Virus record (IMG/VR): IMGVR_UViG_2654587674_000003
DNA: 64,000 nt
From: a virus
Taxonomy: Duplodnaviria; Heunggongvirae; Uroviricota; Caudoviricetes
Direction: 5' to 3' (one strand)
Shown: piece after piece, positions 1,412 through 62,975 of the stretch
Layout: each line of letters begins with the position of its first letter
Numbering within the stretch: position 1 is the stretch's first letter
The notes under the pieces: model-generated
The model's input: the letters and a program-made list of their open reading frames with translations, nothing else
What the model was told of the DNA's origin: nothing
Database searches by the model: none
Program-made: the position numbers and the translations under genes

Positions 1412-1476
1412 ACGAACATAGCCCCTTCATAAGCAATGAACCAAAGGAGAGTATGCTCAGTTTGTGATTTCCGTTG

Positions 1477-9291: not shown

Positions 9292-9433
9292 TTATTCCTC
9301 CGAAAAGCAGGTATCTGTTCATTTTCCAGAGGATAGGGAGTGTGTGATTTGCGATGGGGATTGAATGAAGATCTTTGCCGGTCGAGAAGCGATTATTGAG
9401 GGTGATTTTTACACCTTAAGTGACGCTACTCAC

Positions 9434-9442: not shown

Positions 9443-9537
9443 GAGTATTTTTATAAACCTTTTTCCATTTTTAATCCTTTTTAGATCCTTTTTAGGCGTC
9501 GCTGGAGCCAGTAGTGGCGCGGGCTGTAGAGGAGGCT

Positions 9538-9656
9538 GGTGTAAGATTTGCCCTCAATTAAATACGGTCGGTGTAAGATTTGCCCTCAGAAGGTGTAAGA
9601 TTTGCCCTCAAAAGGTGTAGTAATTGCCCTCAAAGTGATGTAAAAATTGCCCTCAC
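9538..9656 (+). repeat. Five direct iterons (about 22-bp period) upstream of repA; origin / incC-like
   Basis: GGTGTAAGATTTGCCCTCA x3, then GGTGTAGTAATTGCCCTCA and GTGATGTAAAAATTGCCCTCA at about 9538, 9570, 9592, 9614, 9636. Confidence 0.85.
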
Positions 9657-9679
9657 CATTTGAAGGATCACACAGGGTT

Positions 9680-10435
9680 ATGAACAGAGCGGAATTAACA
9701 GCAAAAGCCGTCAGCCTGATTGAGTCAGCGACACCTATTAGTCGTAGTTTGGCACAAGCCAATGAGATCACGGAGGCTGCTTATCACCTGACTCGCGACC
9801 AAAAGCGACTGTTGTTTATTGTGGTGGGAAGACTTCGCTATGCTTCTAAGGATGGCGTTCTTGGTTCAGGTGCCTGTGAGTTGACGGTCAACGAATATGC
9901 AGAGATGTATAATTTGCCCTCTGCTGAAGCCAGCAAGGATATTCGTAAGGCCATTTCAGGTCTTAGCGAGAAGAAAGTTACGATATATAACCCTGATGAA
10001 TCGACCGAATCAGAAGACAGTTATGAGTCTTATCCCTGGATGATTAAGGATGCCTATTCACCACGTCGCGGGACTTACATTATTCATCTTAATCCATATC
10101 TCATGCCGTTTTTTACTCTGCTTGATAAGAGATTCACAAGGCTGAATTTTACCGAAGTATCTCGCCTTACAAATCCTTATTCTATGCGGCTTTATGAGTC
10201 CTTATGCCAGTACAGGAAGGATGATGGAAGCGGCTTTGCCATACTTGGCGTCGAATGGATGCGGGAGCGTTATGGGTTACCAAAAAGCTATCAGCGGTAT
10301 GCCGAATTTAAGAGAAGTTTTTTAACGAAGGCTGTAGCAGAGATTGAAAAAAATACAAAAATGAAAATAGTCTTCTCAGAGGTGACGGAAGGCGGCAAAG
10401 TTACCAGGATAAAATTTACCTATCAGCAGTCTTAA
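9680..10435 (+). CDS. repA: Iteron-binding replication initiator RepA
   Basis: ORF flanked by iteron arrays; ATG at 9680 preferred over the TTG at 9647 that lies inside the last iteron. Confidence 0.75.
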   Translation: MNRAELTAKAVSLIESATPISRSLAQANEITEAAYHLTRDQKRLLFIVVGRLRYASKDGVLGSGACELTVNEYAEMYNLPSAEASKDIRKAISGLSEKKVTIYNPDESTESEDSYESYPWMIKDAYSPRRGTYIIHLNPYLMPFFTLLDKRFTRLNFTEVSRLTNPYSMRLYESLCQYRKDDGSGFAILGVEWMRERYGLPKSYQRYAEFKRSFLTKAVAEIEKNTKMKIVFSEVTEGGKVTRIKFTYQQS

Positions 10436-10765
10436 GGGCAATTTTTACACCCCTCTCAAGGTGTAGAATTTGCCCTTAACGATCGGCAATTGAGGGCAAT
10501 TTTTACATCTTAATTGCATGTATCTTGTTATTAGCAAGTTGTGTTTTTATATAACGTATTGATATGTAAGGACTATGTAAAAATCGCCCTCAACCAATAT
10601 CGTGCGTATCGTGCATTCTTATTGCGCTTTTTTATTATCATTCACTGTGTTAACTGATTGATATTATTGAAATGTGTAAAGAATGCCTTCATTACAGATG
10701 AATTGATGATGTAAAAAATGCCCTCAAAATTGCGCTACCTTCCCTACCCGCTATCGTTGAGGGCG
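10435..10765. repeat. Second iteron cluster downstream of repA, both orientations (incA-like copy-control)
   Basis: At least six copies of GTGTA(A/G)AAATTGCCCT(C/T)A-like elements near 10435, 10460, 10491, 10576, 10674, 10708. Confidence 0.7.
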
Positions 10766-17913: not shown

Positions 17914-18040
17914 GGTTAAGCCCTAAATTCGGGCGCGGCGTGAAGGTTCTTTTGACGGGCTAACAATACCTACTTTGTGATTTAGTCAATAGGTTTAGTA
18001 AAATAAAATATATTAACACGCATATTGTTATGTGATTTAA

Positions 18041-18060
18041 TTTTAGTTTTCTAACACAAA
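18041..18060. promoter_or_regulatory. Operator-like motif TTTTCTAACACAAAT (site 1)
   Basis: Core TTTTCTAACA at 18047-18056 in the divergent intergenic region between the capsid gene and the 18072 gene. Confidence 0.5.
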
Positions 18061-23766: not shown

Positions 23767-25428
23767 ATGAGTGAGGCAGAAGCCCGCCCGACTAACTTTA
23801 TTCGTCAGATCATCGATGAAGATCTGGCCAGTGGTAAGCACACCACAGTACATACCCGTTTCCCGCCGGAACCGAATGGCTATCTGCATATTGGTCATGC
23901 GAAATCTATCTGCCTGAACTTCGGGATCGCCCAGGACTATAAAGGCCAGTGCAACCTGCGTTTCGACGACACTAACCCGGTAAAAGAAGATATCGAGTAC
24001 GTCGAGTCGATTAAAAACGACGTTGAATGGTTAGGTTTTCACTGGTCTGGCGACATCCGTTACTCCTCCGATTATTTTGACAAACTCCATGCCTATGCTG
24101 TTGAACTGATCAACAAAGGCCTGGCGTATGTTGACGAACTGACGCCAGAACAGATCCGCGAATACCGCGGCACCCTGACGCAGCCGGGTAAAAACAGCCC
24201 GTACCGCGACCGCAGCGTTGAAGAGAACCTGGCGCTGTTCGAAAAAATGCGTGCCGGTGGTTTTGAAGAAGGTAAAGCCTGCCTGCGTGCGAAAATCGAC
24301 ATGGCTTCGCCGTTTATCGTGATGCGCGACCCGGTGCTGTACCGTATTAAGTTTGCTGAACACCACCAGACTGGCAACAAGTGGTGCATCTACCCGATGT
24401 ACGACTTCACCCACTGCATCAGCGATGCGCTGGAAGGTATTACGCACTCTCTGTGTACGCTTGAGTTCCAGGACAACCGTCGTCTGTATGACTGGGTACT
24501 GGACAACATCACCATTCCTGTTCACCCGCGCCAGTACGAATTCTCGCGCCTGAATCTGGAATACACCGTGATGTCCAAGCGTAAGCTGAACCTGCTGGTG
24601 ACCGACAAGCACGTTGAAGGCTGGGATGACCCGCGTATGCCGACCATTTCCGGTCTGCGTCGTCGTGGTTACACTGCGGCTTCTATTCGTGAGTTCTGCA
24701 AACGCATCGGCGTGACCAAGCAGGACAACACCATTGAGATGGCGTCGCTGGAATCCTGCATTCGTGAAGATCTCAACGAAAACGCCCCGCGCGCAATGGC
24801 GGTTATCGATCCGGTGAAACTGGTCATCGAAAACTATCAGGGCGAAGGCGAAATGGTCACCATGCCGAACCATCCAAACAAACCGGAAATGGGTAGCCGT
24901 CAGGTGCCGTTTAGCGGTGAGATTTGGATCGACCGCGCCGATTTCCGAGAAGAAGCTAACAAGCAGTACAAACGTCTGGTGCTGGGTAAAGAAGTGCGTC
25001 TGCGTAATGCTTACGTCATTAAGGCTGAACGCGTGGAGAAAGATGCCGAAGGTAATATCACCACCATCTTCTGTACTTATGACGCCGACACCTTAAGCAA
25101 AGATCCGGCAGATGGTCGTAAAGTGAAAGGCGTTATTCACTGGGTGAGCGCGGCACATGCGCTGCCGGTTGAAATCCGCCTGTACGATCGTCTGTTCAAC
25201 GTGCCGAACCCAGGTGCTGCGGATGATTTCCTGTCGGTGATTAACCCGGAATCGCTGGTGATCAAACAAGGCTTTGCTGAACCGTCGCTGAAAGAAGCGG
25301 TAGCGGGTAAAGCATTCCAGTTTGAGCGTGAAGGTTATTTCTGCCTCGACAGCCGCCATTCTACGGCGGAAAAACCGGTATTTAACCGCACCGTTGGACT
25401 GCGTGATACCTGGGCGAAGTTAGGTTAA
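23767..25428 (+). CDS. glnS: Glutaminyl-tRNA synthetase
   Basis: 553 aa; HIGH motif ([12 protein letters not shown]), VMSKR; near-identical to enterobacterial GlnRS as I recall it; own promoter region and terminator. Confidence 0.95.
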
Positions 25429-28984: not shown

Positions 28985-29027
28985 CCATTTGTGTTAGAAA
29001 ATACATATTAATTATCTAACACAAATG
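28985..29027. promoter_or_regulatory. Palindromic operator pair (CATTTGTGTTAGA ... TCTAACACAAATG) immediately upstream of rdgC
   Basis: Perfect 13-bp inverted repeats 17 bp apart; each contains the TGTTAGAAAA/TTTTCTAACA family core. Confidence 0.6.
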
Positions 29028-29037
29028 GGTGCATTTT

Positions 29038-32239: not shown

Positions 32240-32389
32240 AGGTCGATCTGTCAGGTATCGAAAGGAAGATTTTCGGGAGATTGTGATTTTGGATGAAGGA
32301 GGGGGAATTCATAAAATGCACTTGCGCACAGTGCAACGGTGCGCTATAGTTATGGCATTCGGTAATCATCACGGAGGATCAAATGACTA

Positions 32390-35657: not shown

Positions 35658-35850
35658 AACAAAGCCTCTCAGTCATAACCTGGGGGAAACTGTATGCAGG
35701 GTGTGAAATGCGAGAAACAGACAGGCCACCAGTTCAGGGGGATGTGGTTCATAAATCCCCTCACTGGTGACAAGTGACTTTCATTAATCTTTATGCGGGG
35801 GCCAGCTTCATTTGCTGGCATTAGATTAAAAATCAAACGGAGTAAATGAC

Positions 35851-36690: not shown

Positions 36691-36907
36691 TGCTTTGGCG
36701 TTATGACTCCCTACCGCGCTTCGGCTGAAAGTTAATCGTCAAAAGAACCTTCAACGGGAGCCGTTAGCGCGATGGATTATGTGCAGTTTGTGATTTCCAG
36801 AATAGTGTCAACCACTTTTTGAGGATTTTATTATTTGACCGAAACTTGGCCTAAATCATGTTGATGTAGTTGATTGTTTTTATAACATAAAACTTCATTT
36901 TGTTTAC

Positions 36908-38311: not shown

Positions 38312-39253
38312 TTAACTAACAATCCAGTCCATAGCAATAACATCCTCTGGAGCTAAATCAATAGCATGGATTTTCCCGTCACGGATGGTGCGCCAGTGCT
38401 TTCGTGATCCACCTTCGGGCCACACCCATATACCTTCAGGCCAGGAAGAACGACGACACACTGTTGCGTATCCAGTCCTGATCTTCTCTCTGACGGTATG
38501 TAGTGACAGATTATCCTTTGGGCTTTCAGGCACAGGATGGTGGATTGCCTGAAACATCCCCATCTTTGGATGATACCAGCGTTTATTGCGTGGTTCTGCC
38601 TCCGACATCACCTGCTTAAAGGCTTTCCGGAAGGGGGCCAGGGCCACAATGGAACGTCGCGCAAGCAAACCGTCGGGAGTTAAAAACTCATGCGTATCTG
38701 TGGGGATCCGGTAAGCGTTGACCAGGTTGCGGCATTTGGCTTCAGTCAGGCCGCATTTCGCCGCTAACTGGCGATAGCCAATGTAGCCTTCCGGAATATT
38801 GCCTTTCTTTATTTGCTCGACGGTTTCAGCGACTTTGGTCACTTGTGCCGATACTTCGGCTACCTGGGCATTAACGGCGTTGATCCGGCGTTCATGCTCA
38901 AGATGCATTTGCGCCATTTCAGCCAGAATTTCGGCTTTTGATTTTAACTGTACCCGGGCATTCTCCAGTTCGCGCCAGCGGTCCACCAGCCGGGCGGTGA
39001 ATTCGGGAGAGAGCTGCGCGACGACGACAATACTATCGCGCTTGCCTTGCTCGCCTTCGAAGAAATAGGCTTTTGTGTATTTATTAGGGCTAAGTGATTG
39101 ATTATTCTCAACTGTAGCCAATGGCGTATGTTGGATAACTCCTTTAGCAACAAGTCTTTCGATGCTGCGTTTAACATCAGAGTGACGACTTCCCACCAGT
39201 TCCGCGATCTCAATGCTGGTCATTGTCGCTTTTTGAGAGATGGACAGATTCAT
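38312..39253 (-). CDS. Rha-family phage regulatory protein / antirepressor-like (Ant-like)
   Basis: N-terminal SIEIAELVGSRHSDVKRSIERL matches the Rha N-domain as recalled; follows icd-like gene. Confidence 0.65.
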   Translation of the reverse strand: MNLSISQKATMTSIEIAELVGSRHSDVKRSIERLVAKGVIQHTPLATVENNQSLSPNKYTKAYFFEGEQGKRDSIVVVAQLSPEFTARLVDRWRELENARVQLKSKAEILAEMAQMHLEHERRINAVNAQVAEVSAQVTKVAETVEQIKKGNIPEGYIGYRQLAAKCGLTEAKCRNLVNAYRIPTDTHEFLTPDGLLARRSIVALAPFRKAFKQVMSEAEPRNKRWYHPKMGMFQAIHHPVPESPKDNLSLHTVREKIRTGYATVCRRSSWPEGIWVWPEGGSRKHWRTIRDGKIHAIDLAPEDVIAMDWIVS

Positions 39254-39468
39254 CAGTGCACCTCCACGCAGTTCATTGGCAGATTCCAGTAATTGAGGAT
39301 CTCCATCGCATCAAGAGTGAAGCGAGCAGCAAAAATGCAGGGTTCTTCGGGAAGGTATGAGCGCGCCTCTGCTTCGGTAGCAGCCATTACGCAGATATAA
39401 AGGTGTTTTTGGCAGGAATAGAAACGCCAGATAAATTCAGAATGAGTTGGGGTAGGGATAGTAGCCAT
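39253..39468 (-). CDS. icd: Icd-like host cell-division inhibitor family small protein
   Basis: 71 aa; AATEAEARSYLP...IFAARFT resembles the Icd-like family signature as recalled; position before ant. Confidence 0.5.
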   Translation of the reverse strand: MATIPTPTHSEFIWRFYSCQKHLYICVMAATEAEARSYLPEEPCIFAARFTLDAMEILNYWNLPMNCVEVH

Positions 39469-39652
39469 ATTGGCAGCCTCCTTTGACTAAGTTAAGGAGC
39501 TACCGCGTGAGGTTCCAATCTCAATGGCGGTAGCACTGACTGGGTTGGAACTACCGGCGTCAAAGGGAACCGGCCTGCCTTTCGGCAGCCCAGCCAGCAC
39601 TACCATTGATCTCTGAGCTAAACGCTAAGTATGGCTGTGCGATGGCATGACA
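39469..39652 (-). ncRNA. Structured leader upstream of icd; candidate c4-like regulatory RNA region
   Basis: Several stem-loops (GCTACCGC...GCGGTAGC; CTGCC-TTTC-GGCAG) between a terminator and icd; analogy to the P1 immunity-I layout is inference. Confidence 0.3.
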
Positions 39653-39676
39653 CAAAAAAAGACGCGTTCGGCGTCT
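39653..39676 (-). terminator. Intrinsic terminator on minus strand within the icd leader
   Basis: AGACGC-CGAAC-GCGTCT followed by TTTTTTT (minus strand). Confidence 0.55.
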
Positions 39677-39780
39677 GTGTCGCCTTTGACATTATCCGGG
39701 GTTCCAATCCCGGCACCCGTTTTTCTAAGGTGCCGTAGAAATATACCCCACGATAATGCCATGGCGCAACAGTCAGTATT

Positions 39781-40269: not shown

Positions 40270-40280
40270 TGTTAGAAAAC
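40270..40280. promoter_or_regulatory. Operator-like motif TGTTAGAAAAC (site 3)
   Basis: Family core overlapping the stop of the Ref-like gene. Confidence 0.45.
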
Positions 40281-40858
40281 TAATTTATCAATTCAATCGC
40301 CATCTGATACAACGCCATTTCATCGGCATTGTGCCGTATGAAATCTGCTTTTCCGCCTATTTTTCCATCAGCATGAACAGGGACCAGCCAGGGATATTGT
40401 TCTCGGACCTCGGCTGGCGCTGCGTACTGGTGGTGCCATTTACACAAAGGGAGGACATATTTATGCGCGTTCTCTGCCGTTCTCCCGAAGATATGGTGCA
40501 GGGATACTACTGGGCTATGTTGCCCGTGAATATGGCAGGCAATGCAGGGGAGAGTACCGATAGCGGTCTGTATCCGGCGTTCATCGGCTGTGAGTGATCT
40601 GCCCTTCAGGCCGCGTGACGTGCGTGTTTTTTTGGGCGGAGCGGATACAGCTTTATCTTTTCTCCGCTGTTCATATTGCTTTGCTTTTTCAATTTTCTTT
40701 TGCCGATATTCAGGCGATGCGGCTTTTTCTCTCGCTCGCTGCTGCTGGCGTTGAGCTTGTTGAAGGCGCTTTGCCCTTTGTTCCTCTCGCCAGGCCGGGT
40801 CAGCCAATTTTTGCATGGCTTTTTGTCTCTGTTTCTCCCAATAACTCTGTTTCTGCAT
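40280..40858 (-). CDS. Ref-like HNH-type endonuclease: disordered basic N-terminus + Cys/His-rich C-terminal core
   Basis: 192 aa; K/R/Q-rich first 90 residues; CIACHIHGQH...HHIFGR...CKWHH; operator-like sites upstream. Confidence 0.5.
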   Translation of the reverse strand: MQKQSYWEKQRQKAMQKLADPAWREEQRAKRLQQAQRQQQRAREKAASPEYRQKKIEKAKQYEQRRKDKAVSAPPKKTRTSRGLKGRSLTADERRIQTAIGTLPCIACHIHGQHSPVVSLHHIFGRTAENAHKYVLPLCKWHHQYAAPAEVREQYPWLVPVHADGKIGGKADFIRHNADEMALYQMAIELIN

Positions 40859-40907
40859 GATGGCAGTCTCTTACTTTTCAACGATTTTTCTATGATTGAT
40901 CAAAATG

Positions 40908-40936
40908 GTTAGATATTCAAAATTGATTTTCTAACA
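40908..40936. promoter_or_regulatory. Operator pair GTTAGA-n16-TCTAAC upstream of the Ref-like gene
   Basis: Inverted half-sites with the same spacing as at 28985-29027 and 46161-46188. Confidence 0.5.
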
Positions 40937-45445: not shown

Positions 45446-46134
45446 TCCAGGCTATGCATGAAATGAATTTATATAGCCGTATTGATGGTTCTGGCTACAG
45501 AAACATATGGGTTGTTGGTGATCTGCATGGTTGCTACACCAGACTGATGTCCGAACTCCATCGTGTGGATTTTGACCCGACGCAGGATTTACTGATATCG
45601 GTTGGCGACCTTATCGATCGCGGTACTGAAAATGTCGAATGTCTGGAACTATTGCAGATGCCCTGGTTCAGGGCAGTAATGGGGAACCATGAGCGGTTGA
45701 TGCTTGATGCGTTAAGTCCTGATGGCAACGTGAATAACTGGCTAATGAATGGCGGACAATGGTTCTTCATGCTGGACACTGATCAGGAAATATTAGCCAA
45801 GGCGCTGGTGGAGCTGGTAAAGCGTCTGCCATATATCATTGAGTTGAACACCGGGCATGAAACTATCGTTATAGCCCATGCCGACTATCCAGGTGGAGAG
45901 TACCAGTTCGGTAAGGATGTGTCGTTTTTTGATGTTGTCTGGTCGCGCAGTCGCGTCGGTGATTCGATAGATGGCATTGGTGGAGAAATCACAGGCGCAG
46001 ATCGCTTTATCTTTGGGCACACACCGGTACGAAGACCAAAAGCATACTGGAATCAGCACTACATAGACACGGGCGCGGTTTTTTGCGGAAATCTGACGCT
46101 AATGCAGGTGAAGGGAGGGCAGCTTAAAGTCTGA
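45442..46134 (+). CDS. Ser/Thr protein phosphatase (lambda-PPase / PrpA-like metallophosphatase)
   Basis: GDLHG, GDLIDRG, GNHE motifs. Confidence 0.8.
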
Positions 46135-46160
46135 TCAAATCATTTACGCACTCAAAATGC

Positions 46161-46188
46161 GTTAGAACATTGATTTTAGTTTTCTAAC
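46161..46188. promoter_or_regulatory. Operator pair GTTAGAAC-n15-TTCTAACA upstream of the 46232 gene
   Basis: Same half-site family and spacing as sites at 28985 and 40908. Confidence 0.5.
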
Positions 46189-46231
46189 ATATTATTTTAC
46201 CGCTCGGAACAAAACAGAGTCGGTATACATT

Positions 46232-47227: not shown

Positions 47228-47243
47228 TGAGGTGGATCAAAAA

Positions 47244-53422: not shown

Positions 53423-54517
53423 TCACTCAATGATTTTTTCTGCTGTCAGCCAGCTAATTTCTTGCCTGTCTTTCGGCGGTTTTAGCATGTGGGCGTATTC
53501 AGCGACATTCTCCCACGAAATTGTTTTTGCCCACTCAACGATAGCATTGTGATCTGCAGTGAAGAGTGGAATGGTGTGCGATTTCAACCATTCTAATGTC
53601 GTGACGCCATGTTTTTTGGCGTGGTGCTGCGCATGATGCCGGGCTATCACTCGTAATGGTATTGTCCATTCACTACCATCAGGCATCGAAAAGCGCATTG
53701 TCTTCGGCATATCTGATTCAAGAACAGCCTCCCTAATACCAGGGAACTCACCAAGAATCATACGACGATAGTCATCACTATTTCGCCCGCCATACCTTTC
53801 GGCAAAATGATCAAGATATTCTTGGGTAATAAATGGTGAATCCTCCGCACTCAGCTTAATGGCTTTATATACACCACTCGGATTATCTTCAGCTAAAGCA
53901 CGTCCATGATGTGAATCATAAAAAAAGCCTATTTCCTCTGGTGACGGAATTGAAGTGAGCAATATGCGTGAATCACCACTAGTCATGCTTGCCCACACAA
54001 TGCTGTATGCCTGATCGCTGATATGTGCGGAATCCACAATAATGAATAAAAGATGGTCGGCGTAGTGACCTGCAATGCTATCTTCATAGTTAAGGCGGAA
54101 GTTACAAAAGCACATTCCCCAAAATTCATTGAACATCAGACCGCTATCACCGACCTTAAAATACTCAATGATAAAAGGTTGTTTTTTCAGCAATGCCTCC
54201 CAACATTGCCACACATATGCAACAATTCCTCTTTTGCAAACATTTGATTTTGGATAAACAATTACTGTCCGGGAATCAGGATACATAATCGTATAAAGGG
54301 TACTAATAACAGCAAGCACTTGCGGTCGTCCGATCCCATACGGAGTGGTGACAGTAGCTTTTGCATTATTGGGCTGTATAGCTTCAACAATTTGTTGTTG
54401 CTGGTGGCTTAAATCAATATCAAACAATTCTTTTGCTGCCAGTACCCAATTGTCTTTATATTTCTCCACCAGCGACAGCCAGCGCGGATCTTTATAAATA
54501 TTGCTCTTAGTCGCCAT
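53423..54517 (-). CDS. Terminase-large-subunit ATPase-domain paralog with degenerate Walker A/B; no nuclease domain
   Basis: Colinear similarity to the pacB product (HQQQQI, FYDSHH, YGGR, GxFP) but SGHGTGKS is replaced by TPYGIGRP and LILDEASG by FIIVDSAH; ATG 54515-54517 with AAGGAAG RBS. Confidence 0.55.
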   Translation of the reverse strand: MATKSNIYKDPRWLSLVEKYKDNWVLAAKELFDIDLSHQQQQIVEAIQPNNAKATVTTPYGIGRPQVLAVISTLYTIMYPDSRTVIVYPKSNVCKRGIVAYVWQCWEALLKKQPFIIEYFKVGDSGLMFNEFWGMCFCNFRLNYEDSIAGHYADHLLFIIVDSAHISDQAYSIVWASMTSGDSRILLTSIPSPEEIGFFYDSHHGRALAEDNPSGVYKAIKLSAEDSPFITQEYLDHFAERYGGRNSDDYRRMILGEFPGIREAVLESDMPKTMRFSMPDGSEWTIPLRVIARHHAQHHAKKHGVTTLEWLKSHTIPLFTADHNAIVEWAKTISWENVAEYAHMLKPPKDRQEISWLTAEKIIE

Positions 54518-57090: not shown

Positions 57091-57112
57091 TCTAAAAAGA
57101 TGTGTTAGAATT
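57091..57112. promoter_or_regulatory. Operator-like inverted motif TCTAAAAA-GATG-TGTTAGAA
   Basis: Family core between the recombinase stop and the next gene. Confidence 0.45.
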
Positions 57113-57117
57113 TTAAT

Positions 57118-58146
57118 TTACGAATCCATCAGGCGGCTATTAGCCCCCACAGACACGCCGCCACGGCGAAGATACCGCATAAGTGTTTCCGGTTTCTTCC
57201 AGGTTCCTTCCTGCATGATCTCCACCATAGACACCTGCTTTTCAGCCATATCAATAGCGGCCCCGACGCGTGCACTATGCCCAGTCCACGTCCGGTATCT
57301 TCCTTTGTTTGGCGTAGCATCTCTTTTATTCAGCAACACCCAGGCGTCGCTGAATATTTTCTCCATTGCAGGTGCAGTAAGGGGCGTTGTCGTAATCCTG
57401 GCCTTATTGCTACGGTGTATCGGCGGGAACAGCACCGCGTCAGGATGTTCACGAAGCCCGGAAACATCCAGCCAGTCATTCAGCACAGCAGTAGTGCGAC
57501 GGGAAAGCACCTTATCAAGCCCGGCGGCGGTCGTTATTGTCTTCGTGTGTGAAATATGTAGCGTGACAGTGTCACCTGTTTGGTCCAGATCTCCTACACG
57601 AATACGCGAGATTTCCGACATACGCATCAGCGTATTGTATGCAACAAAGAGAAAAGCCCGGTTGCGCTGGTCCACCAGCCGTTCTGACCTGGACAGCAGG
57701 ACGTCGAGCAGTTTCAGGTCGTCCCACCGCAACGGTATAGCCTGGCCTGTTCGCTCGCCTTTTTCCGTTGCCGCTTCACGCCGGATGCGCCGCATGGCCA
57801 GAGACACACTTTTATCGTCCGACAGCGGCGGGAGGCCACATTGCGAAAGCAGCATGTTAAGCATGGCATAGTGCTTATCAATGGTGGTCGAAGCCAGATC
57901 AGCATCATGCAGCTGAAGAAAATACTCGCGGGCCATCTCTGGTGAGATCGGGAACCAGGCGAGCTGGCGAGCGTGACACCATCTCGCCCAGGAGTGAAAC
58001 ACTAACCGGAGATCGCGCAAAGTATTCGGCGCGTAAGCCCCCTGGTCATTCATGAACCGCATAAAGTTTTCTGCGGCCTCCTGGTACTCTTTGCCAATGT
58101 TGCGCAGAAAACCACCGGAGCTGCCAGAGATAATTAATTTACTCAT
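57118..58146 (-). CDS. dre: Cre-like tyrosine site-specific recombinase (Dre-type)
   Basis: 342 aa colinear with P1 Cre as recalled (WFP...NMLLSQCGLPPLSDDKSVSLAMRRIR, C-terminal WTGHSARVGAAIDMA); adjacent rox-like site. Confidence 0.9.
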   Translation of the reverse strand: MSKLIISGSSGGFLRNIGKEYQEAAENFMRFMNDQGAYAPNTLRDLRLVFHSWARWCHARQLAWFPISPEMAREYFLQLHDADLASTTIDKHYAMLNMLLSQCGLPPLSDDKSVSLAMRRIRREAATEKGERTGQAIPLRWDDLKLLDVLLSRSERLVDQRNRAFLFVAYNTLMRMSEISRIRVGDLDQTGDTVTLHISHTKTITTAAGLDKVLSRRTTAVLNDWLDVSGLREHPDAVLFPPIHRSNKARITTTPLTAPAMEKIFSDAWVLLNKRDATPNKGRYRTWTGHSARVGAAIDMAEKQVSMVEIMQEGTWKKPETLMRYLRRGGVSVGANSRLMDS

Positions 58147-58298
58147 GAAACTATTTAACCTCTATATACAGATGACGCTACGCGAAAAATATAAAAATGA
58201 CAGGGTAGCTATAAGTTAATTTTCAAGATTCAAGCCTTTGATCCGAGGCACGTATTTTCAGTGATGTCAACACTGATCATCTACCCATGATTATAGCC

Positions 58299-58330
58299 TA
58301 ACTTTAAATAATGCCAATTATTTAAAGTTA
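58299..58330. other. rox-like recombination target site (14-bp inverted arms, 4-bp spacer)
   Basis: TAACTTTAAATAAT-GCCA-ATTATTTAAAGTTA, 150 bp upstream of the recombinase gene; matches my recollection of rox. Confidence 0.8.
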
Positions 58331-58429
58331 TAAAATGCCGATTTTTTTTAATCCATCATAGATTGATGATGACCAGTAACACGTTGCCTTCATGGTCTTT
58401 AATTTGCGAAGTGTGGTTTCTACGGTTGG

Positions 58430-58523
58430 TTTTCTAAAATTGATGACAAAAAATCACAGTTCGATCCTTTACTCACTCTGTTATTCGACATAAATTTGTC
58501 ATAGTAATTTTATGTTAGAAAAC
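58430..58523. promoter_or_regulatory. Two operator-like sites (TTTTCTAAAA at 58430-58439; TGTTAGAAAAC at 58513-58523) upstream of the 58541 gene
   Basis: Family core motifs in the rox-to-58541 intergenic region. Confidence 0.5.
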
Positions 58524-58540
58524 TAAATCGAGTAGGAATA

Positions 58541-59578
58541 ATGAGTAAGAAGTCGATCGAGAAAGAGTACAAACGGTTCCTGCAAACCGCTGAACGGTGG
58601 AAAGAGCTGGTGGTCGCAAACTCTGTTTTCCATGATACCAGTTATGCTGGCGAGGAATTCCGCCATGTTGCATTAACGCATGACCAAAACATATTAGAAG
58701 AAGCTGAAAAATGTCTTGCTGAATGGAAAGCCTTCGTTGACATGTGCCGCGATGCCGACGGCAAAGCGTCGAACATTGTTGAGTCTGTATATTCTCCGAT
58801 CCCATTCATCATTGAGGACACCAATCAAAGCACGCATGTCGTTGTGCAAAGCGCTACAACAACACGTACATTTACACGTGAACAATTGCTAAAAAAATAC
58901 GACAAAATCATAAAGAAAAGCCTTAAAAATAGGGTTTTTTCTCAAATCGTAGGTGATCTTGAAGAAGAACAGCGCTTCTTTGAAGCTGAGCCTGAAGGCG
59001 AGATCTACCGGGCGCGTAAAGAGGCATATACAGATGTTGTGCTGACAACAAACATCGAAGGCAGCAATGCCCTTTCTCGCTTTAGAGTTGGCGCACATGG
59101 TGCATTGGTTTTCGCAAGACTACCGAAGACAACGATCCCCGTTGTCAATAATGTTGGTGAACGCCGGAGCATTACAATTTATTCTGGCGTCGAATCGGTA
59201 CCTTGCAGCCTTCTCGGCGATTTTAACTTATATCGTGTTCGTGACCTGGAAAAACACCAGCCAAGCTATGTTGCGAAGTCGTACATCTTAAGGAACATCG
59301 ATATTCGCAATGAAAGCCTTAAGCAGAAATCCGCTAAGATGCTGGAGGATGCCGATCCGGCTATTCGCCATATCATTGAGCGTAAGATACGTACATCACG
59401 TGAAGCAATGGCAAGGCTGGATAAAATGGATCTGGAATTGTTAGACGTAATGATGGCCTCTGGAGACGACCTGACCGGCATTAAACTGAATGAAGCTCGT
59501 AAAAAATACGGCAAAGCAATCGAAGAACGTTACGGATACACATTCCCCCAAACGCAGTACGCCGCGAAGCTCTGGTAA
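58541..59578 (+). CDS. Hypothetical protein (345 aa); candidate immunity repressor by position and operator context
   Basis: Divergent from the recombinase, convergent with pacB, preceded by two operator-like sites; no sequence-level support for repressor identity. Confidence 0.55.
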   Translation: MSKKSIEKEYKRFLQTAERWKELVVANSVFHDTSYAGEEFRHVALTHDQNILEEAEKCLAEWKAFVDMCRDADGKASNIVESVYSPIPFIIEDTNQSTHVVVQSATTTRTFTREQLLKKYDKIIKKSLKNRVFSQIVGDLEEEQRFFEAEPEGEIYRARKEAYTDVVLTTNIEGSNALSRFRVGAHGALVFARLPKTTIPVVNNVGERRSITIYSGVESVPCSLLGDFNLYRVRDLEKHQPSYVAKSYILRNIDIRNESLKQKSAKMLEDADPAIRHIIERKIRTSREAMARLDKMDLELLDVMMASGDDLTGIKLNEARKKYGKAIEERYGYTFPQTQYAAKLW

Positions 59579-59605
59579 TCACAACCGGCCCCGCATCGCG
59601 GGGCT

Positions 59606-61114
59606 TTATATATCCAGATCCGGCATTTCGATATCCGCCAGAACCTGATCTCGGAAAGTTGCCATTTCGGCACCAATATCTTCATTAGCAGGCACATAGT
59701 CCACCAGCATAGTGAAGCAGTAGGTATCCCATCGGTCAGGCGATTTGATGTTTAGCTTTTGCCGCATGTGCTCTTTGCGCATCATCGCCATTTTCCCTTC
59801 TTCATTCAGTAAAAAGGGGATTTTTGACGCTTGCTCTGCCGTTTTAGGGTCACTGTCTATCCGCATACGCCCTGACTTTATGGCATCACGCGCCATAATG
59901 TTTGCGTAGGCACGCTGATTAACAAATCGCTCCCTGTCTTTGTTCGCAAACATGGGTTTTCCCCACCGAATACGTACCGGGTTCGCACCACGACGCACCA
60001 ACTGCGCACACGTATCAGAACCAAAACCATCAGCATCAACCGCGATTGTTATATTCGGGTATTTTTCCGGCGTACATTCGTTATATATGAAGTCAGCAAA
60101 GGCCAATGGGTCCATAGTGCCAGGCATCTCCATTACCTTAAAGTTAACAACGCGCCGCTTATCCCTGTGACCTGATACCTTGCAGATGTTGAGGACCGAC
60201 TTATCTCGCCCATTACCAACGTCAGCCGTTGCCACCCATCCCCAGTTTTTCTCCAACAACACCTTGCGGCGAGCAGAGCGATCGCATTCATCACGACCAA
60301 GCAAATAGCCGTTAATTTCTCGTGGGAACTGACCAAGCACCTTGACCATGTACTCAATAGAATCGCGCCCACCATATTCCAGAAGCTTCTCCTTGATGAA
60401 TTGTGGTGTGACGAACGGTGATTCTTCCGAGTTAAGAACAATTGCTGTCCAGATCCCTTTCGGGTTGTCTGGGGTTTTTGCTCGAGAATGGTGCGAATCG
60501 TAGAAATAACCACTTGGCCTTGTTGGCTGGGATAGCATCAACATCCGGTTATCTTCTTCAGTAAGAGCACCGGTCATTACGCCGATCGCCTTATCAGATA
60601 TACCAGATGCTTCATCCAGAATTAGAAGCAAATGTGCCGCGTGTTCCCCCGCCAGCGCTTCTTCGTTGCCGAGTCGATAACCTTTGCAGAGAACTTCCCA
60701 AATCCCCTTACGGGAGCGCTCATAAAACATGGTGTCAGAGAGGACAAAATAGGTCTGCAACCACCCATGACGCTTAACTGCATTCGCCCAATACTGTTTA
60801 ACGTATTTGAATACGCCTGTTTTTACCTGGCCTATCTTGTTAGCAACAATGATGACACGGGCATCGGGGAACAGGATCATAAAAATCAACAGCAACATCG
60901 CGGTAAGGGACGACTTCCCCGTTCCGTGTCCGGACGTGACGGTCGTCCTACTCCCCGTTTCCTGCACTGACTGAATGATCTGCTGCTGCTGGTGGGAGGG
61001 GAACATCCCAAAAATATCGACTACAGCCTGGGTAAAGTTGTAGCGGTATTTGATTACCATATCGCGCCAGCGTGGATCGCTGGTGACGCATTTAATCTTG
61101 CGCCCGCCAGCCAT
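59606..61114 (-). CDS. pacB: Terminase large subunit PacB-like
   Basis: 502 aa; Walker A TSGHGTGKSS, Walker B LLLILDEASG; coupled to pacA. Confidence 0.8.
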   Translation of the reverse strand: MAGGRKIKCVTSDPRWRDMVIKYRYNFTQAVVDIFGMFPSHQQQQIIQSVQETGSRTTVTSGHGTGKSSLTAMLLLIFMILFPDARVIIVANKIGQVKTGVFKYVKQYWANAVKRHGWLQTYFVLSDTMFYERSRKGIWEVLCKGYRLGNEEALAGEHAAHLLLILDEASGISDKAIGVMTGALTEEDNRMLMLSQPTRPSGYFYDSHHSRAKTPDNPKGIWTAIVLNSEESPFVTPQFIKEKLLEYGGRDSIEYMVKVLGQFPREINGYLLGRDECDRSARRKVLLEKNWGWVATADVGNGRDKSVLNICKVSGHRDKRRVVNFKVMEMPGTMDPLAFADFIYNECTPEKYPNITIAVDADGFGSDTCAQLVRRGANPVRIRWGKPMFANKDRERFVNQRAYANIMARDAIKSGRMRIDSDPKTAEQASKIPFLLNEEGKMAMMRKEHMRQKLNIKSPDRWDTYCFTMLVDYVPANEDIGAEMATFRDQVLADIEMPDLDI

Positions 61115-62478
61115 TAATCATCCTCCGGCGGTTCTATCGCGATATCATCATCTCCGGCGTCATACCCTGCATCAGATGCATCATAATCACCGTAAATTTC
61201 AGCCGTTGCCGAAGGGTCAATATCCAGCTCTTCGTCGTTGGCCTCGAATTCTCCAGCTTTACGCTCGCCATTGCGGTCGTAATCTCCGCACCCCAATTCT
61301 TCAACAATGGTTGCCACATCCGCCCGGCGCTCTGCCAGCCATTGCGGATGGTTAGCCTGAAGCGTTGCAAACTCCCTTGCCTCTTTGTCCAGCTGTTCAT
61401 CATCAACATCATTGACGTCAGAAACAGGTGGTTCGAGAAGAGTGATAGCTTTCGCCGCGCGCGCCGCGAGGATAGCCGGGACGCTGACACCCTGGCGCTC
61501 GATGTATTCAGCAACACCGATATCATCCAGTTCCTCGCGCTCACGCATACGTATAGCGGCGGCGATAACTCTGGCTGCGCGTGCGTCAGCGCCAATGCGA
61601 TATTCAATCTCTTTGCCACGCTGTTCGGCCTGTAGGCGTGCTAATTCGAGTTTTTCTCTGGCCTCAGCCTCTTTGAATGCTTGCTGGCGAGCGCTCTGAC
61701 GAAGCTTTTCATCCCCCTGTCGCAGCTTTTGTTCGGACTGATATATAGCTGCCAACCTACTGATAAAATCATTCATGTAGTAGGCCGCGTCACTGATTAG
61801 ACCGAGAAGGCGCTGCCCAGGGTGCATTCCTTCTGGCTCTTTATCGCCCAAGGCGTCTATTTCCGCCTGTAGACGTTCGGCCTCCTGATCAACAATGCTT
61901 TGATACTGAAGTGCGCGCTCTTGCGCCATTTGAATTGCTAACCGCAGGTGTTCTTCTGCGCCGTTCTTCATCATATCGCGAGCCACATTCGTAGTTGGCA
62001 ATGTGGCACGCTGCACAGCACCGTCAGGGATCATTGCAGAAGATCCCTCAATTTTTGGGGCGTTTTTATCTTCTTCGGGGATCATTTTCGCCATTTTTTC
62101 GCGCAATGATCTCCTGACAGATTCTTTTATCTCATTGTTATTATTTGAATTATTTTCATGATCCGAAGTTTTCTTTCTCGGCATACTTCGGAAAGAACCT
62201 GCGCCCTGCGAATTGTCAATTTCTGTAAATTTTGTTTTTTCTGCACCCTCTTCCAGCTTTTTTGTTGCTCTTCCCGCCCGTTTTTTTTCAGGTGATTTGG
62301 TGCTTTTTTTTGTTGTCTTTACCTGCGACCGCACCTCATTTTTTTTCATATTGAGATGCTTTCTGGCTGTATTGAAGCTAAGGCCATGCTCCTCACAGTA
62401 TTCCTTTACAGTGATCCCTTTTTCTTCACGCAACGCTATAAAGCGGGCGCGGTGCTCCTCCCAATTAACCAGACTCAT
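61114..62478 (-). CDS. pacA: Terminase small / pac-recognition subunit PacA-like
   Basis: N-terminal HTH (ITVKEYCEEHGLSFNTARKHL), coiled-coil middle, acidic C-terminus. Confidence 0.7.
   Translation of the reverse strand: MSLVNWEEHRARFIALREEKGITVKEYCEEHGLSFNTARKHLNMKKNEVRSQVKTTKKSTKSPEKKRAGRATKKLEEGAEKTKFTEIDNSQGAGSFRSMPRKKTSDHENNSNNNNEIKESVRRSLREKMAKMIPEEDKNAPKIEGSSAMIPDGAVQRATLPTTNVARDMMKNGAEEHLRLAIQMAQERALQYQSIVDQEAERLQAEIDALGDKEPEGMHPGQRLLGLISDAAYYMNDFISRLAAIYQSEQKLRQGDEKLRQSARQQAFKEAEAREKLELARLQAEQRGKEIEYRIGADARAARVIAAAIRMREREELDDIGVAEYIERQGVSVPAILAARAAKAITLLEPPVSDVNDVDDEQLDKEAREFATLQANHPQWLAERRADVATIVEELGCGDYDRNGERKAGEFEANDEELDIDPSATAEIYGDYDASDAGYDAGDDDIAIEPPEDD
61887..62163. other. 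GATC-rich segment inside pacA; candidate pac cleavage site
   Basis: Six GATC in about 277 bp (61887, 62029, 62042, 62080, 62108, 62160), five of them in 135 bp. Confidence 0.35.
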
Positions 62479-62867
62479 AAAGCAACACCACGCTTTTTAA
62501 CGGCGGCATTCCACAGCTTATTCGCCATGTCCACCAGCTCTCGTTGCTCTTTTCGCGCCTGTTCGACTGATTTCCTGCTACAGTTTTTAACCAGTAAACT
62601 GCCATATTCAGGGGTTCGCCCACGCACCTTGAACTGATATCCGTTCAGGCCATGCAACCAGTATTTTCGTGGGTAAACACGATCATCAAGCTCACAGATT
62701 GCCCTGCTTGAACGAACAAAATGACGAATGATGTTAGTTACACTTACTCGTGAAACATGGAGATGAGGGTATTTTTCTTTGGCGAGAGTGGTAATTTCAG
62801 TGACTGTCAGATAGCAGTCAGCCCTGATCATGATATCCGCAATTTCTGCGCTGCTGATTTGTTCCAT
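62475..62867 (-). CDS. Small protein upstream of pacA; possible late-promoter-activator-like
   Basis: ATGA overlap with pacA; assignment by position only. Confidence 0.4.
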   Translation of the reverse strand: MEQISSAEIADIMIRADCYLTVTEITTLAKEKYPHLHVSRVSVTNIIRHFVRSSRAICELDDRVYPRKYWLHGLNGYQFKVRGRTPEYGSLLVKNCSRKSVEQARKEQRELVDMANKLWNAAVKKRGVAL

Positions 62868-62975
62868 TAATCCCCCGGGCAGGAAATGACCGAGGGGATG
62901 ATAATGAGAATGTTAAAACTGTATAGACTGGTAAAAAGATGATTGTATTAGAAAATTAATACTAAATATCTAATG

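Follow-up and report, generated by a model that had tools for sequence, protein, structure and literature searches.

The short sites repeated through the intergenic DNA of the stretch analysed here (the window; 64,000 nucleotides) are most probably operators of the C1 repressor encoded by the element itself, a reading that we put at about 80% and that rests on comparative sequence analysis. Judged from these comparisons, sites and repressor form a P1-type C1 operator network that has its own specificity and contains no homologue of Coi or Lxc. We infer that C1 is the binding protein, that its binding amounts to repression, and that paired sites are bound cooperatively.

The window is related to Escherichia phage D6, a plasmid prophage like P1, and has a mosaic make-up. 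Over long stretches it shares 94-98% identity with D6 (MF356679, AY753669), and in some modules ~95% with P1, P7 or RCS47; none of the PLSDB plasmids matches it from end to end. With the D6 record AY753669 as guide, the immC gene order dre, rox, c1, pacB, pacA, lpa was located at 57118-62867. The genes and RNAs relevant to the analysis are:

38312-39253, minus strand: gene for an Ant homologue (by homology; same unit as icd)
39253-39468, minus strand: gene for an Icd homologue (by homology)
39523-39610, minus strand: C4 antisense RNA (Rfam match, 77 bits)
39655-39733, minus strand: isrK-like sRNA (Rfam match, 61 bits)
57118-58146, minus strand: dre, Cre-like recombinase gene (D6 immC record)
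58541-59578, plus strand: c1, gene for the D6-type C1 repressor, 345 aa (annotated as c1 in D6 record AY753669)
59606-61114, minus strand: pacB (D6 immC record)
61114-62478, minus strand: pacA (D6 immC record)
62475-62867, minus strand: lpa, late-promoter activator gene (D6 immC record)

The isrK-like RNA and the C4 RNA, which lie upstream of icd and of the gene for an Ant-type antirepressor, constitute an immI module; in D6 another icd-antirepressor module is found in DNA that the window does not cover. Other sequence features were recorded along the same stretch. A near-consensus sigma70 promoter, TTGGCA-16-TATAAT (11 of 12 matches; 58290-58317, minus strand), overlaps rox and faces dre. Iterons of 19 bp, GGTGTAAGATTTGCCCTCA, are found at 9396-9415, 9537-9654, 9903-9921 and 10432-10727: five tandem copies, with 22-23-bp spacing, stand upstream of a repA-like gene (9647-10435), and more copies, in both orientations, stand downstream of it, a layout like that of P1 oriR with incC and incA. 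There are 40 copies of the Chi sequence GCTGGTGG in the whole window, against 1.9 expected, and the same excess is seen in P1 (50 copies of CCACCAGC/GCTGGTGG per 94.8 kb).

The first-pass annotation had described a 10-mer core at about nine positions, all of them intergenic. Exact copies of TTTTCTAACA are found six times in the window (18047+, 28992-, 40270-, 40927+, 46180+ and 58513-), against 0.24 expected from dinucleotide shuffles, and none of 100 shuffles reached six. Copies with one mismatch are present at 29012+, 58430+ and 62946-, and the copy at 57103 reads AATTCTAACA on the minus strand. The figure of about nine places is borne out, and most of the positions given were right, but the 10-mer starts at 46180 and not at 46183, and at 62946 and not at 62948. 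Further one-mismatch matches lie at 24236, 33384 and 36878, of which the two at 24236 and 33384 are coding and look like noise. The intergenic placement was upheld as well: 10 of the 17 copies of TCTAAC in the window fall within the ~8% of it that lies outside ORFs, and TGTTAGAA is intergenic in 7 of 7 cases and TTAGAAAA in 9 of 10.

Motif discovery on the intergenic regions and a scan with the resulting matrix had been proposed as checks, and both returned the motif. In an unbiased ranking, in which all 7- and 8-mers were compared with an order-2 model of the same intergenic DNA, the motif words came first among the intergenic-enriched words (P ~1e-8), followed by the plasmid iteron words and then by AAATCACA. 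As a positive control, the same k-mer method was applied to P1 and returned the known, experimentally defined C1 operator words. A position matrix was trained solely on sites from three relatives and then applied to the window. It gave 10 matches, with scores of 17.5-34 bits, each of them intergenic or touching a gene edge; the next best match scored 8.4 bits, and first-order random sequences gave 0-2 matches that scored 12 bits or more, the highest being 16.4. By this matrix the window has 10 strong and 3 weak sites, and the complete D6 genome has 17 strong sites. The copy near 62948, which had been taken for a weak variant, is in fact a strong site (26.7 bits). The consensus from 44 non-redundant sites in relatives is AAATTA(G/A)TTTTCTAACA(C/T)A, so that a site consists of a near-invariant 8-9-bp core and a moderately conserved A/T arm 5′ of the core, and is asymmetric and ~17 bp long. 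The core TTCTAACA is absent from P1 (0 copies). The putative operators of the window, with their matrix scores, are:

18040-18056, plus strand: monovalent site, 28.1 bits; 15 nt upstream of the orf52 ATG (18072)
28985-29028, halves 28992-29008 (minus strand) and 29005-29021 (plus strand): bivalent rdgC site, 25.6 and 17.7 bits
36880-36887, plus strand: doubtful weak site TTTTATAACA, 8.4 bits, within the random range; upstream of the 36908 gene
40270-40286, minus strand: monovalent site, 27.7 bits; abuts the ref stop codon
40907-40936, weak half 40907-40923 (minus strand) and strong half 40920-40936 (plus strand): bivalent ref/orf88 site, 7.5 and 28.7 bits
46160-46189, halves 46160-46176 (minus strand) and 46173-46189 (plus strand): bivalent site, 17.5 and 34.1 bits
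57103-57119, minus strand: monovalent site, 26.7 bits; just past the dre stop codon and 58 nt upstream of the orf117-dut operon
58423-58439, plus strand: second, degenerate c1 site TTTTCTAAAA, 3.5 bits; 83 bp from the 58513 site and convergent with it
58513-58529, minus strand: c1 site, 27.8 bits; 18 nt upstream of the c1 ATG, with the core TTCTAACA at 58513-58520
62946-62975, strong half 62946-62962 (minus strand) and weak half 62959-62975 (plus strand): bivalent lpa site, 26.7 and 2.4 bits

The two sites upstream of c1 are conserved beyond their surroundings. At the 58513 site, TTTTATGTTAGAAAA is invariant in five relatives, whereas the neighbouring spacer is scrambled (alignment A1), and the site recurs in loci with a C1 of 51% and 44% identity to that of the window. 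At the 58423 site, TTTTCTAA is an invariant island in ~100 nt of unalignable DNA, the rox-c1 spacer, and loci L012 and L013 have the full TTTTCTAACA at this position. Upstream of lpa both halves of the bivalent site are conserved (alignment A3), and P1 has Olpa in the same place. Directly before the lpa start there is also a conserved hairpin, CCCCTCGG...CCGGGGGA (~62868-62897, minus strand). Its 3′ arm contains the Shine-Dalgarno sequence, and compensatory changes are seen in L012 and L013 (CCCTCCGG...CCGGAGG), which suggests translational control of the late activator.

The site at 28985-29028 lies between gene 5 and rdgC, with a core 13 nt upstream of the rdgC ATG (28978). It is an inverted repeat with 18-nt arms that are 94% complementary, it is identical in D6, and its syntenic counterpart in P1 is Odmt, which precedes uhr-hrdC-dmt; a sigma70-like -10 element, GATAAT (29016-29011), overlaps its right half. 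The site at 40907-40936 occupies a divergent region, in which the weak half faces ref and the strong half faces the 40979 early operon that includes ppp. Its spacing is kept in D6, L005, L006 and L007, and P1 has Oref upstream of ref. The 40270 site stands at the head of the minus-strand operon of the isrK-like RNA, c4 RNA, icd and ant (immI), and in P1 its counterparts are Omat, at the ref 3′ end, and Oc4, which precedes c4-icd-ant. The right half of 46160-46189 has the best matrix score in the window. This site, which is found between ppp and the 46232 operon (a DUF968/HNH pdcB-like gene, then a pmgT-like gene), is conserved in D6, L005, L006 and L007, is present in L013, and corresponds to P1 OpmgR/OpmgT. 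The 18040 site lies in a region divergent from the major capsid gene 23 and has a D6 counterpart at 54210; the genes downstream of the site match PHROGs of unknown function. The 57103 site is kept in the same place in L005-L008, L012 and L013. At the place of the doubtful 36880 site D6 has a similar weak match (8.9 bits).

Three inverted pairs with a spacing of 16 or 17 nt had been noted by the first-pass annotation. All three are real, but the spacing is 16 nt in each of them, and a fourth pair is present at lpa (62946/62968), so that the four bivalent sites (28985-29028, 40907-40936, 46160-46189 and 62946-62975) share the arrangement GTTAGA-N16-TCTAAC. Among the opposed core pairs that lie at most 60 bp apart in seven D6-type genomes, 18 of 25 have exactly this offset. 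One dominant offset suggests that the spacing is under selection, as would be the case for two proteins bound side by side.

The product of the gene at 58541 had been named as a candidate binder, and what was found about it is consistent with that proposal. Its gene is annotated as c1 in D6, and by sequence the product is a distant homologue of P1 C1: the two proteins are 21% identical (pairwise E 1e-8), the window C1 matches phrog_1678 with an E of 5e-170, and P1 C1 belongs to the same PHROG. The family PF27008 (Phage_P7_repressor_C1), to which P1 C1 belongs as well, is recorded for homologues of the window C1, which scores 25.9 bits against the NCBIfam C1 equivalog, for which the cut-off is 500. 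A C1 of the window (D6) type is encoded by 149 PLSDB plasmids. The gene sits in an immC neighbourhood of the P1 type, next to a Cre-type recombinase gene and the rox site, convergent with pacA-pacB and with lpa upstream of pac. An exhaustive representative search yielded 84 C1-family clusters, most of which match only profile positions ~5-245; the extra C-terminal helical region of the window C1 is absent from most of them. When P1 Coi and Lxc were compared by tblastn with the window and D6, at E up to 1, only one 12-residue chance match was obtained. The c1 gene adjoins rox directly, with no coi or imc genes in between, and Lxc is likewise undetected in a D6-like plasmid (PMC6799933).

P1 has 22 C1 operators with a 17-bp asymmetric consensus (PMC8546580). 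We extracted the P1 C1 operators and late promoters from the annotated record AF234172, in which the operators lie at c1/coi, at Olpa, Oref, Omat, Oc4, Odmt and OrepL (kilA-repL), and, several of them, in the ppp-pmgT region. The sites of the window match these places at c1, lpa, ref, the 3′ end of ref with c4-icd-ant, rdgC-dmt and the ppp-pmgT region, and outside the window D6 has sites before repL (22467) and before the second icd-ant module (21269). The system thus resembles those of P1 and P7 in having a homologous repressor, a dozen or more scattered A+T-rich asymmetric operators of ~17 bp, the same controlled genes (c1, lpa, ref, hrdC-dmt, c4-icd-ant, repL and the ppp-pmgT region), a mixture of monovalent and inverted bivalent sites, and the pentamer TCTAA in both. 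A network like that of P1 C1, as suggested earlier, is supported by the presence of a C1 homologue and by the location of the sites at P1 operator places.

The operator itself is different, as had also been supposed. The P1 consensus ATTGCTCTAATAAATTT has no match in the window with up to 3 mismatches, and one with 4. The best-conserved part is TTTTCTAACA here and TGCTCTAATA in P1, and the A/T arm precedes TCTAA (5′) here and follows it (3′) in P1. Since the arms are on opposite sides, the register and orientation of the homology between P1 and D6 operators are ambiguous: TCTAA is common to both in one orientation, and the polarity of core and A/T arm is common to both in the other. The cores of the bivalent sites are 21-22 bp apart here, with the 17-mers barely overlapping, whereas the P1 Op72ab sites overlap by 6 bp. 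Unlike P1 C1, the window C1 has ~60-100 extra C-terminal residues. Coi and Lxc homologues are lacking and c1 stands directly beside rox, so that the circuit is no copy of that of P1.

The motif was then followed through loci whose C1 is 90, 80, 70, 68, 51 and 44% identical to that of the window. The core TTCTAACA persists at syntenic places over the whole range of C1 identities from 44 to 100%. A third C1 clade is represented by the Citrobacter/Leclercia plasmids L010 and L011 (NZ_CP042508, NZ_CP099368), with a protein of 344 aa that shares 29-30% identity with the D6 type and 22-24% with P1 C1. These plasmids are like the window in their neighbourhood of recombinase, c1, pacB and pacA and in their syntenic site places. 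Their top intergenic words are ATTCTAAG and CCTTAGAA, with the core (A/T)TTCTAAGG and a T-rich 3′ arm, and TTCTAAGG sites are found before rdgC, before ref, after the recombinase gene and before c1; the one at L011:18378 is at the place equivalent to 57103. The three cores are mutually exclusive between genomes: P1 has GCTCTAAT, D6-type elements have TTCTAACA and the third clade has TTCTAAGG, and TGCTCTAAT has 14 copies in P1 and 0-1 in D6-type loci. It follows from this exclusivity that the motif tracks the C1 lineage and not the host. An operator swap was also sought within DNA ~95% identical to P1; the P1 homology ends at 46115 (ppp) and resumes at 47242 (pmgT), and includes no operator.

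A different box marks the late operons. AAATCACA(A/C) has 14 copies, against 3.7 expected, and in the window the following were located:

1463-1470, minus strand: AAATCACA box
9343-9350, minus strand: AAATCACA box
17976-17983, minus strand: AAATCACA box
32282-32289, minus strand: AAATCACA box
36789-36796, minus strand: AAATCACA box

These boxes are upstream of the R/S tail fibres, pmgB-sit, gene 23, 7-24-6-5 and mat; in D6 they are also found before prt-pro, ddrB-darA and a lysozyme-like gene, which are the places of P1 LP promoters. The P1 late promoter consists of a -22 box AAGTGACTT, N4 and TAnAAT (AF234172). It is likely that the AAATCACA box is the D6-type Lpa-dependent late promoter and that it replaces the P1 AAGTGACTT box. 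A single exact P1-type late box AAGTGACTT is found at 35772-35780; it is nearly palindromic (AAGTCACTT on the other strand), and its position, between gene 26 and mat, is that of the shared LP26/LPpmgL box of P1.

Other explanations of the TTCTAACA sites were weighed against the C1 operator reading. That the repeats arose by chance in A+T-rich intergenic DNA would agree with the one-mismatch count, which at 12 against 5.8 expected is a marginal excess; it is at odds with the exact-copy count and the order-2 enrichment given above and with the conservation of the sites in diverged relatives, and on these grounds a chance origin was rejected as having next to no probability. The sites might instead be the Lpa-dependent late-promoter box, the D6 counterpart of the P1 -22 box. 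Like P1 late promoters, they are short conserved boxes repeated upstream of operons, and many copies face the downstream gene and have a TAnnnT-like hexamer after them, e.g., TCTAACATAAAAT and TCTAACATATTAT. Moreover, Lpa (PF25716) is just 31% identical to P1 Lpa, so that a different box would be expected. However, it is the AAATCACA(A/C) box, followed by ~6 nt and TAnnnT, that precedes the late operons, whereas the TTCTAACA sites are a separate family that precedes early and immunity genes, lpa and c1 included, and some of them point away from the adjacent gene (58513; 10324 and 21269 in D6). With a separate box at the late operons, the late-promoter identity of the TTCTAACA sites was rejected as highly improbable.

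It is very unlikely that the repeats are simply the early promoters, conserved for promoter function and containing no repressor site. Three of the pairs do place their cores at -35/-10 spacing, as TTAGA(A/T)-17 nt-TAACAT, but the hexamers are a poor fit to the consensus (3/6 and 4/6) and were missed by the promoter scan, the monovalent sites have no -35 partner, and several cores end in C, so that position 6 of the -10 element is not T (TAACAC). In addition, sigma70 promoters in the same hosts would not have TTCTAACA in one clade and TTCTAAGG or GCTCTAAT in another. The promoter-like spacing is compatible with operators that overlap promoter hexamers, and need not be read as an alternative to them. 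We also regard as unlikely that the sites are bound by a host factor or by a clade-specific phage protein other than C1. The element does encode other putative DNA-binding proteins, namely HigA-type HTH proteins, an early-operon 'DNA-binding protein' and Ant/Rha-type proteins, and co-variation with clade cannot pick out one protein, because the clades differ across whole genomes and any other clade-specific DNA-binding protein would co-vary likewise. Against a host factor, each of the P1, D6-type and Citrobacter-type elements has a motif of its own, although enterobacterial hosts are common to them all. Against any binder other than C1, the sites replace the P1 C1 operators place for place, and in pK91, a partial D6-like element with dre, c1 and some neighbours, two sites flank the c1 promoter region.

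If the sites are C1 operators, the circuit can be pictured by analogy with P1. In the prophage, C1 would occupy about a dozen asymmetric 17-bp sites at or just downstream of early promoters and would silence lpa, the c4-icd-ant antirepressor operon, ref and rdgC-dmt, as well as the early operons from ~40979 and 46232, orf52-53 and the post-dre operon. It would also limit its own expression through the two sites upstream of c1. Repression of lpa, of the antirepressor, of the recombination and methylation genes and of the early operons, together with c1 autoregulation, is what we infer from this likeness and from the placement of the sites. At the bivalent sites (TGTTAGAA-N14-TTCTAACA) two C1 molecules would lie side by side and probably bind cooperatively; more speculatively, occupancy of a pair could cover both hexamers of a weak TTAGA(A/T)-N17-TAACAT promoter. 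Inactivation of C1 by the Ant-type antirepressor, as in P1, would let the early operons and lpa fire, and Lpa would in turn activate the late operons by way of a different box, AAATCACA. Scans for the sigma70 consensus around the sites performed no better than on shuffled controls, and hence do not fix the geometry of operator and promoter. By the sole predicted promoter, the lpa site would be ~55-65 nt upstream of the transcription start, a distance that counts against the proposed placement.

A weak structural lead suggests that the C1 proteins may be Tus-like. Tus of E. coli binds as a monomer to the asymmetric 23-bp Ter site, and the sites of C1, that of P1 included, are likewise asymmetric; the functions differ, being fork arrest for Tus and transcriptional repression for C1. 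Read as its reverse complement, TGTTAGAAAACTAA, the D6 operator resembles TerB AATAAGTATGTTGTAACTAAAGT and the Ter core TGTTGTAACTAA. The TM-scores of a C1 model against Tus were low (~0.3; model from 8 sequences, pLDDT 79). An 81-member C1 profile was co-linear with Tus over 131-138 columns (P ~0.004), with an hhalign probability of ~9%. Every Tus homologue retrieved had an identity of 81% or more, so that no better Tus profile could be built; a profile search enlarged the C1 alignment by one sequence, and BFVD and PDB sequence searches with C1 returned nothing. It is possible, but rather doubtful, that the C1 family of P1, D6 and Citrobacter has the Tus fold, with at least three orthogonal specificities built around TCTAA, and that the likeness of operator and Ter reflects common ancestry.

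Neither of the two D6 GenBank records has operator features at these sites, and a full-text literature search for the motif or for a 'D6-like operator' returned nothing relevant; the sites may nevertheless have been described before. For the D6 group of plasmid prophages, common residents of E. coli, Salmonella and Shigella, the sites are likely to be the immunity 'address code', and their placement predicts which genes the prophage keeps silent. The mutually exclusive operator sets predict that D6-, P1- and Citrobacter-type elements are heteroimmune and can co-reside, and one protein family would provide three natural, probably orthogonal repressor/operator pairs. The D6-type circuit apparently works without Coi and Lxc, and may offer a simpler version in which to study C1-type switches.
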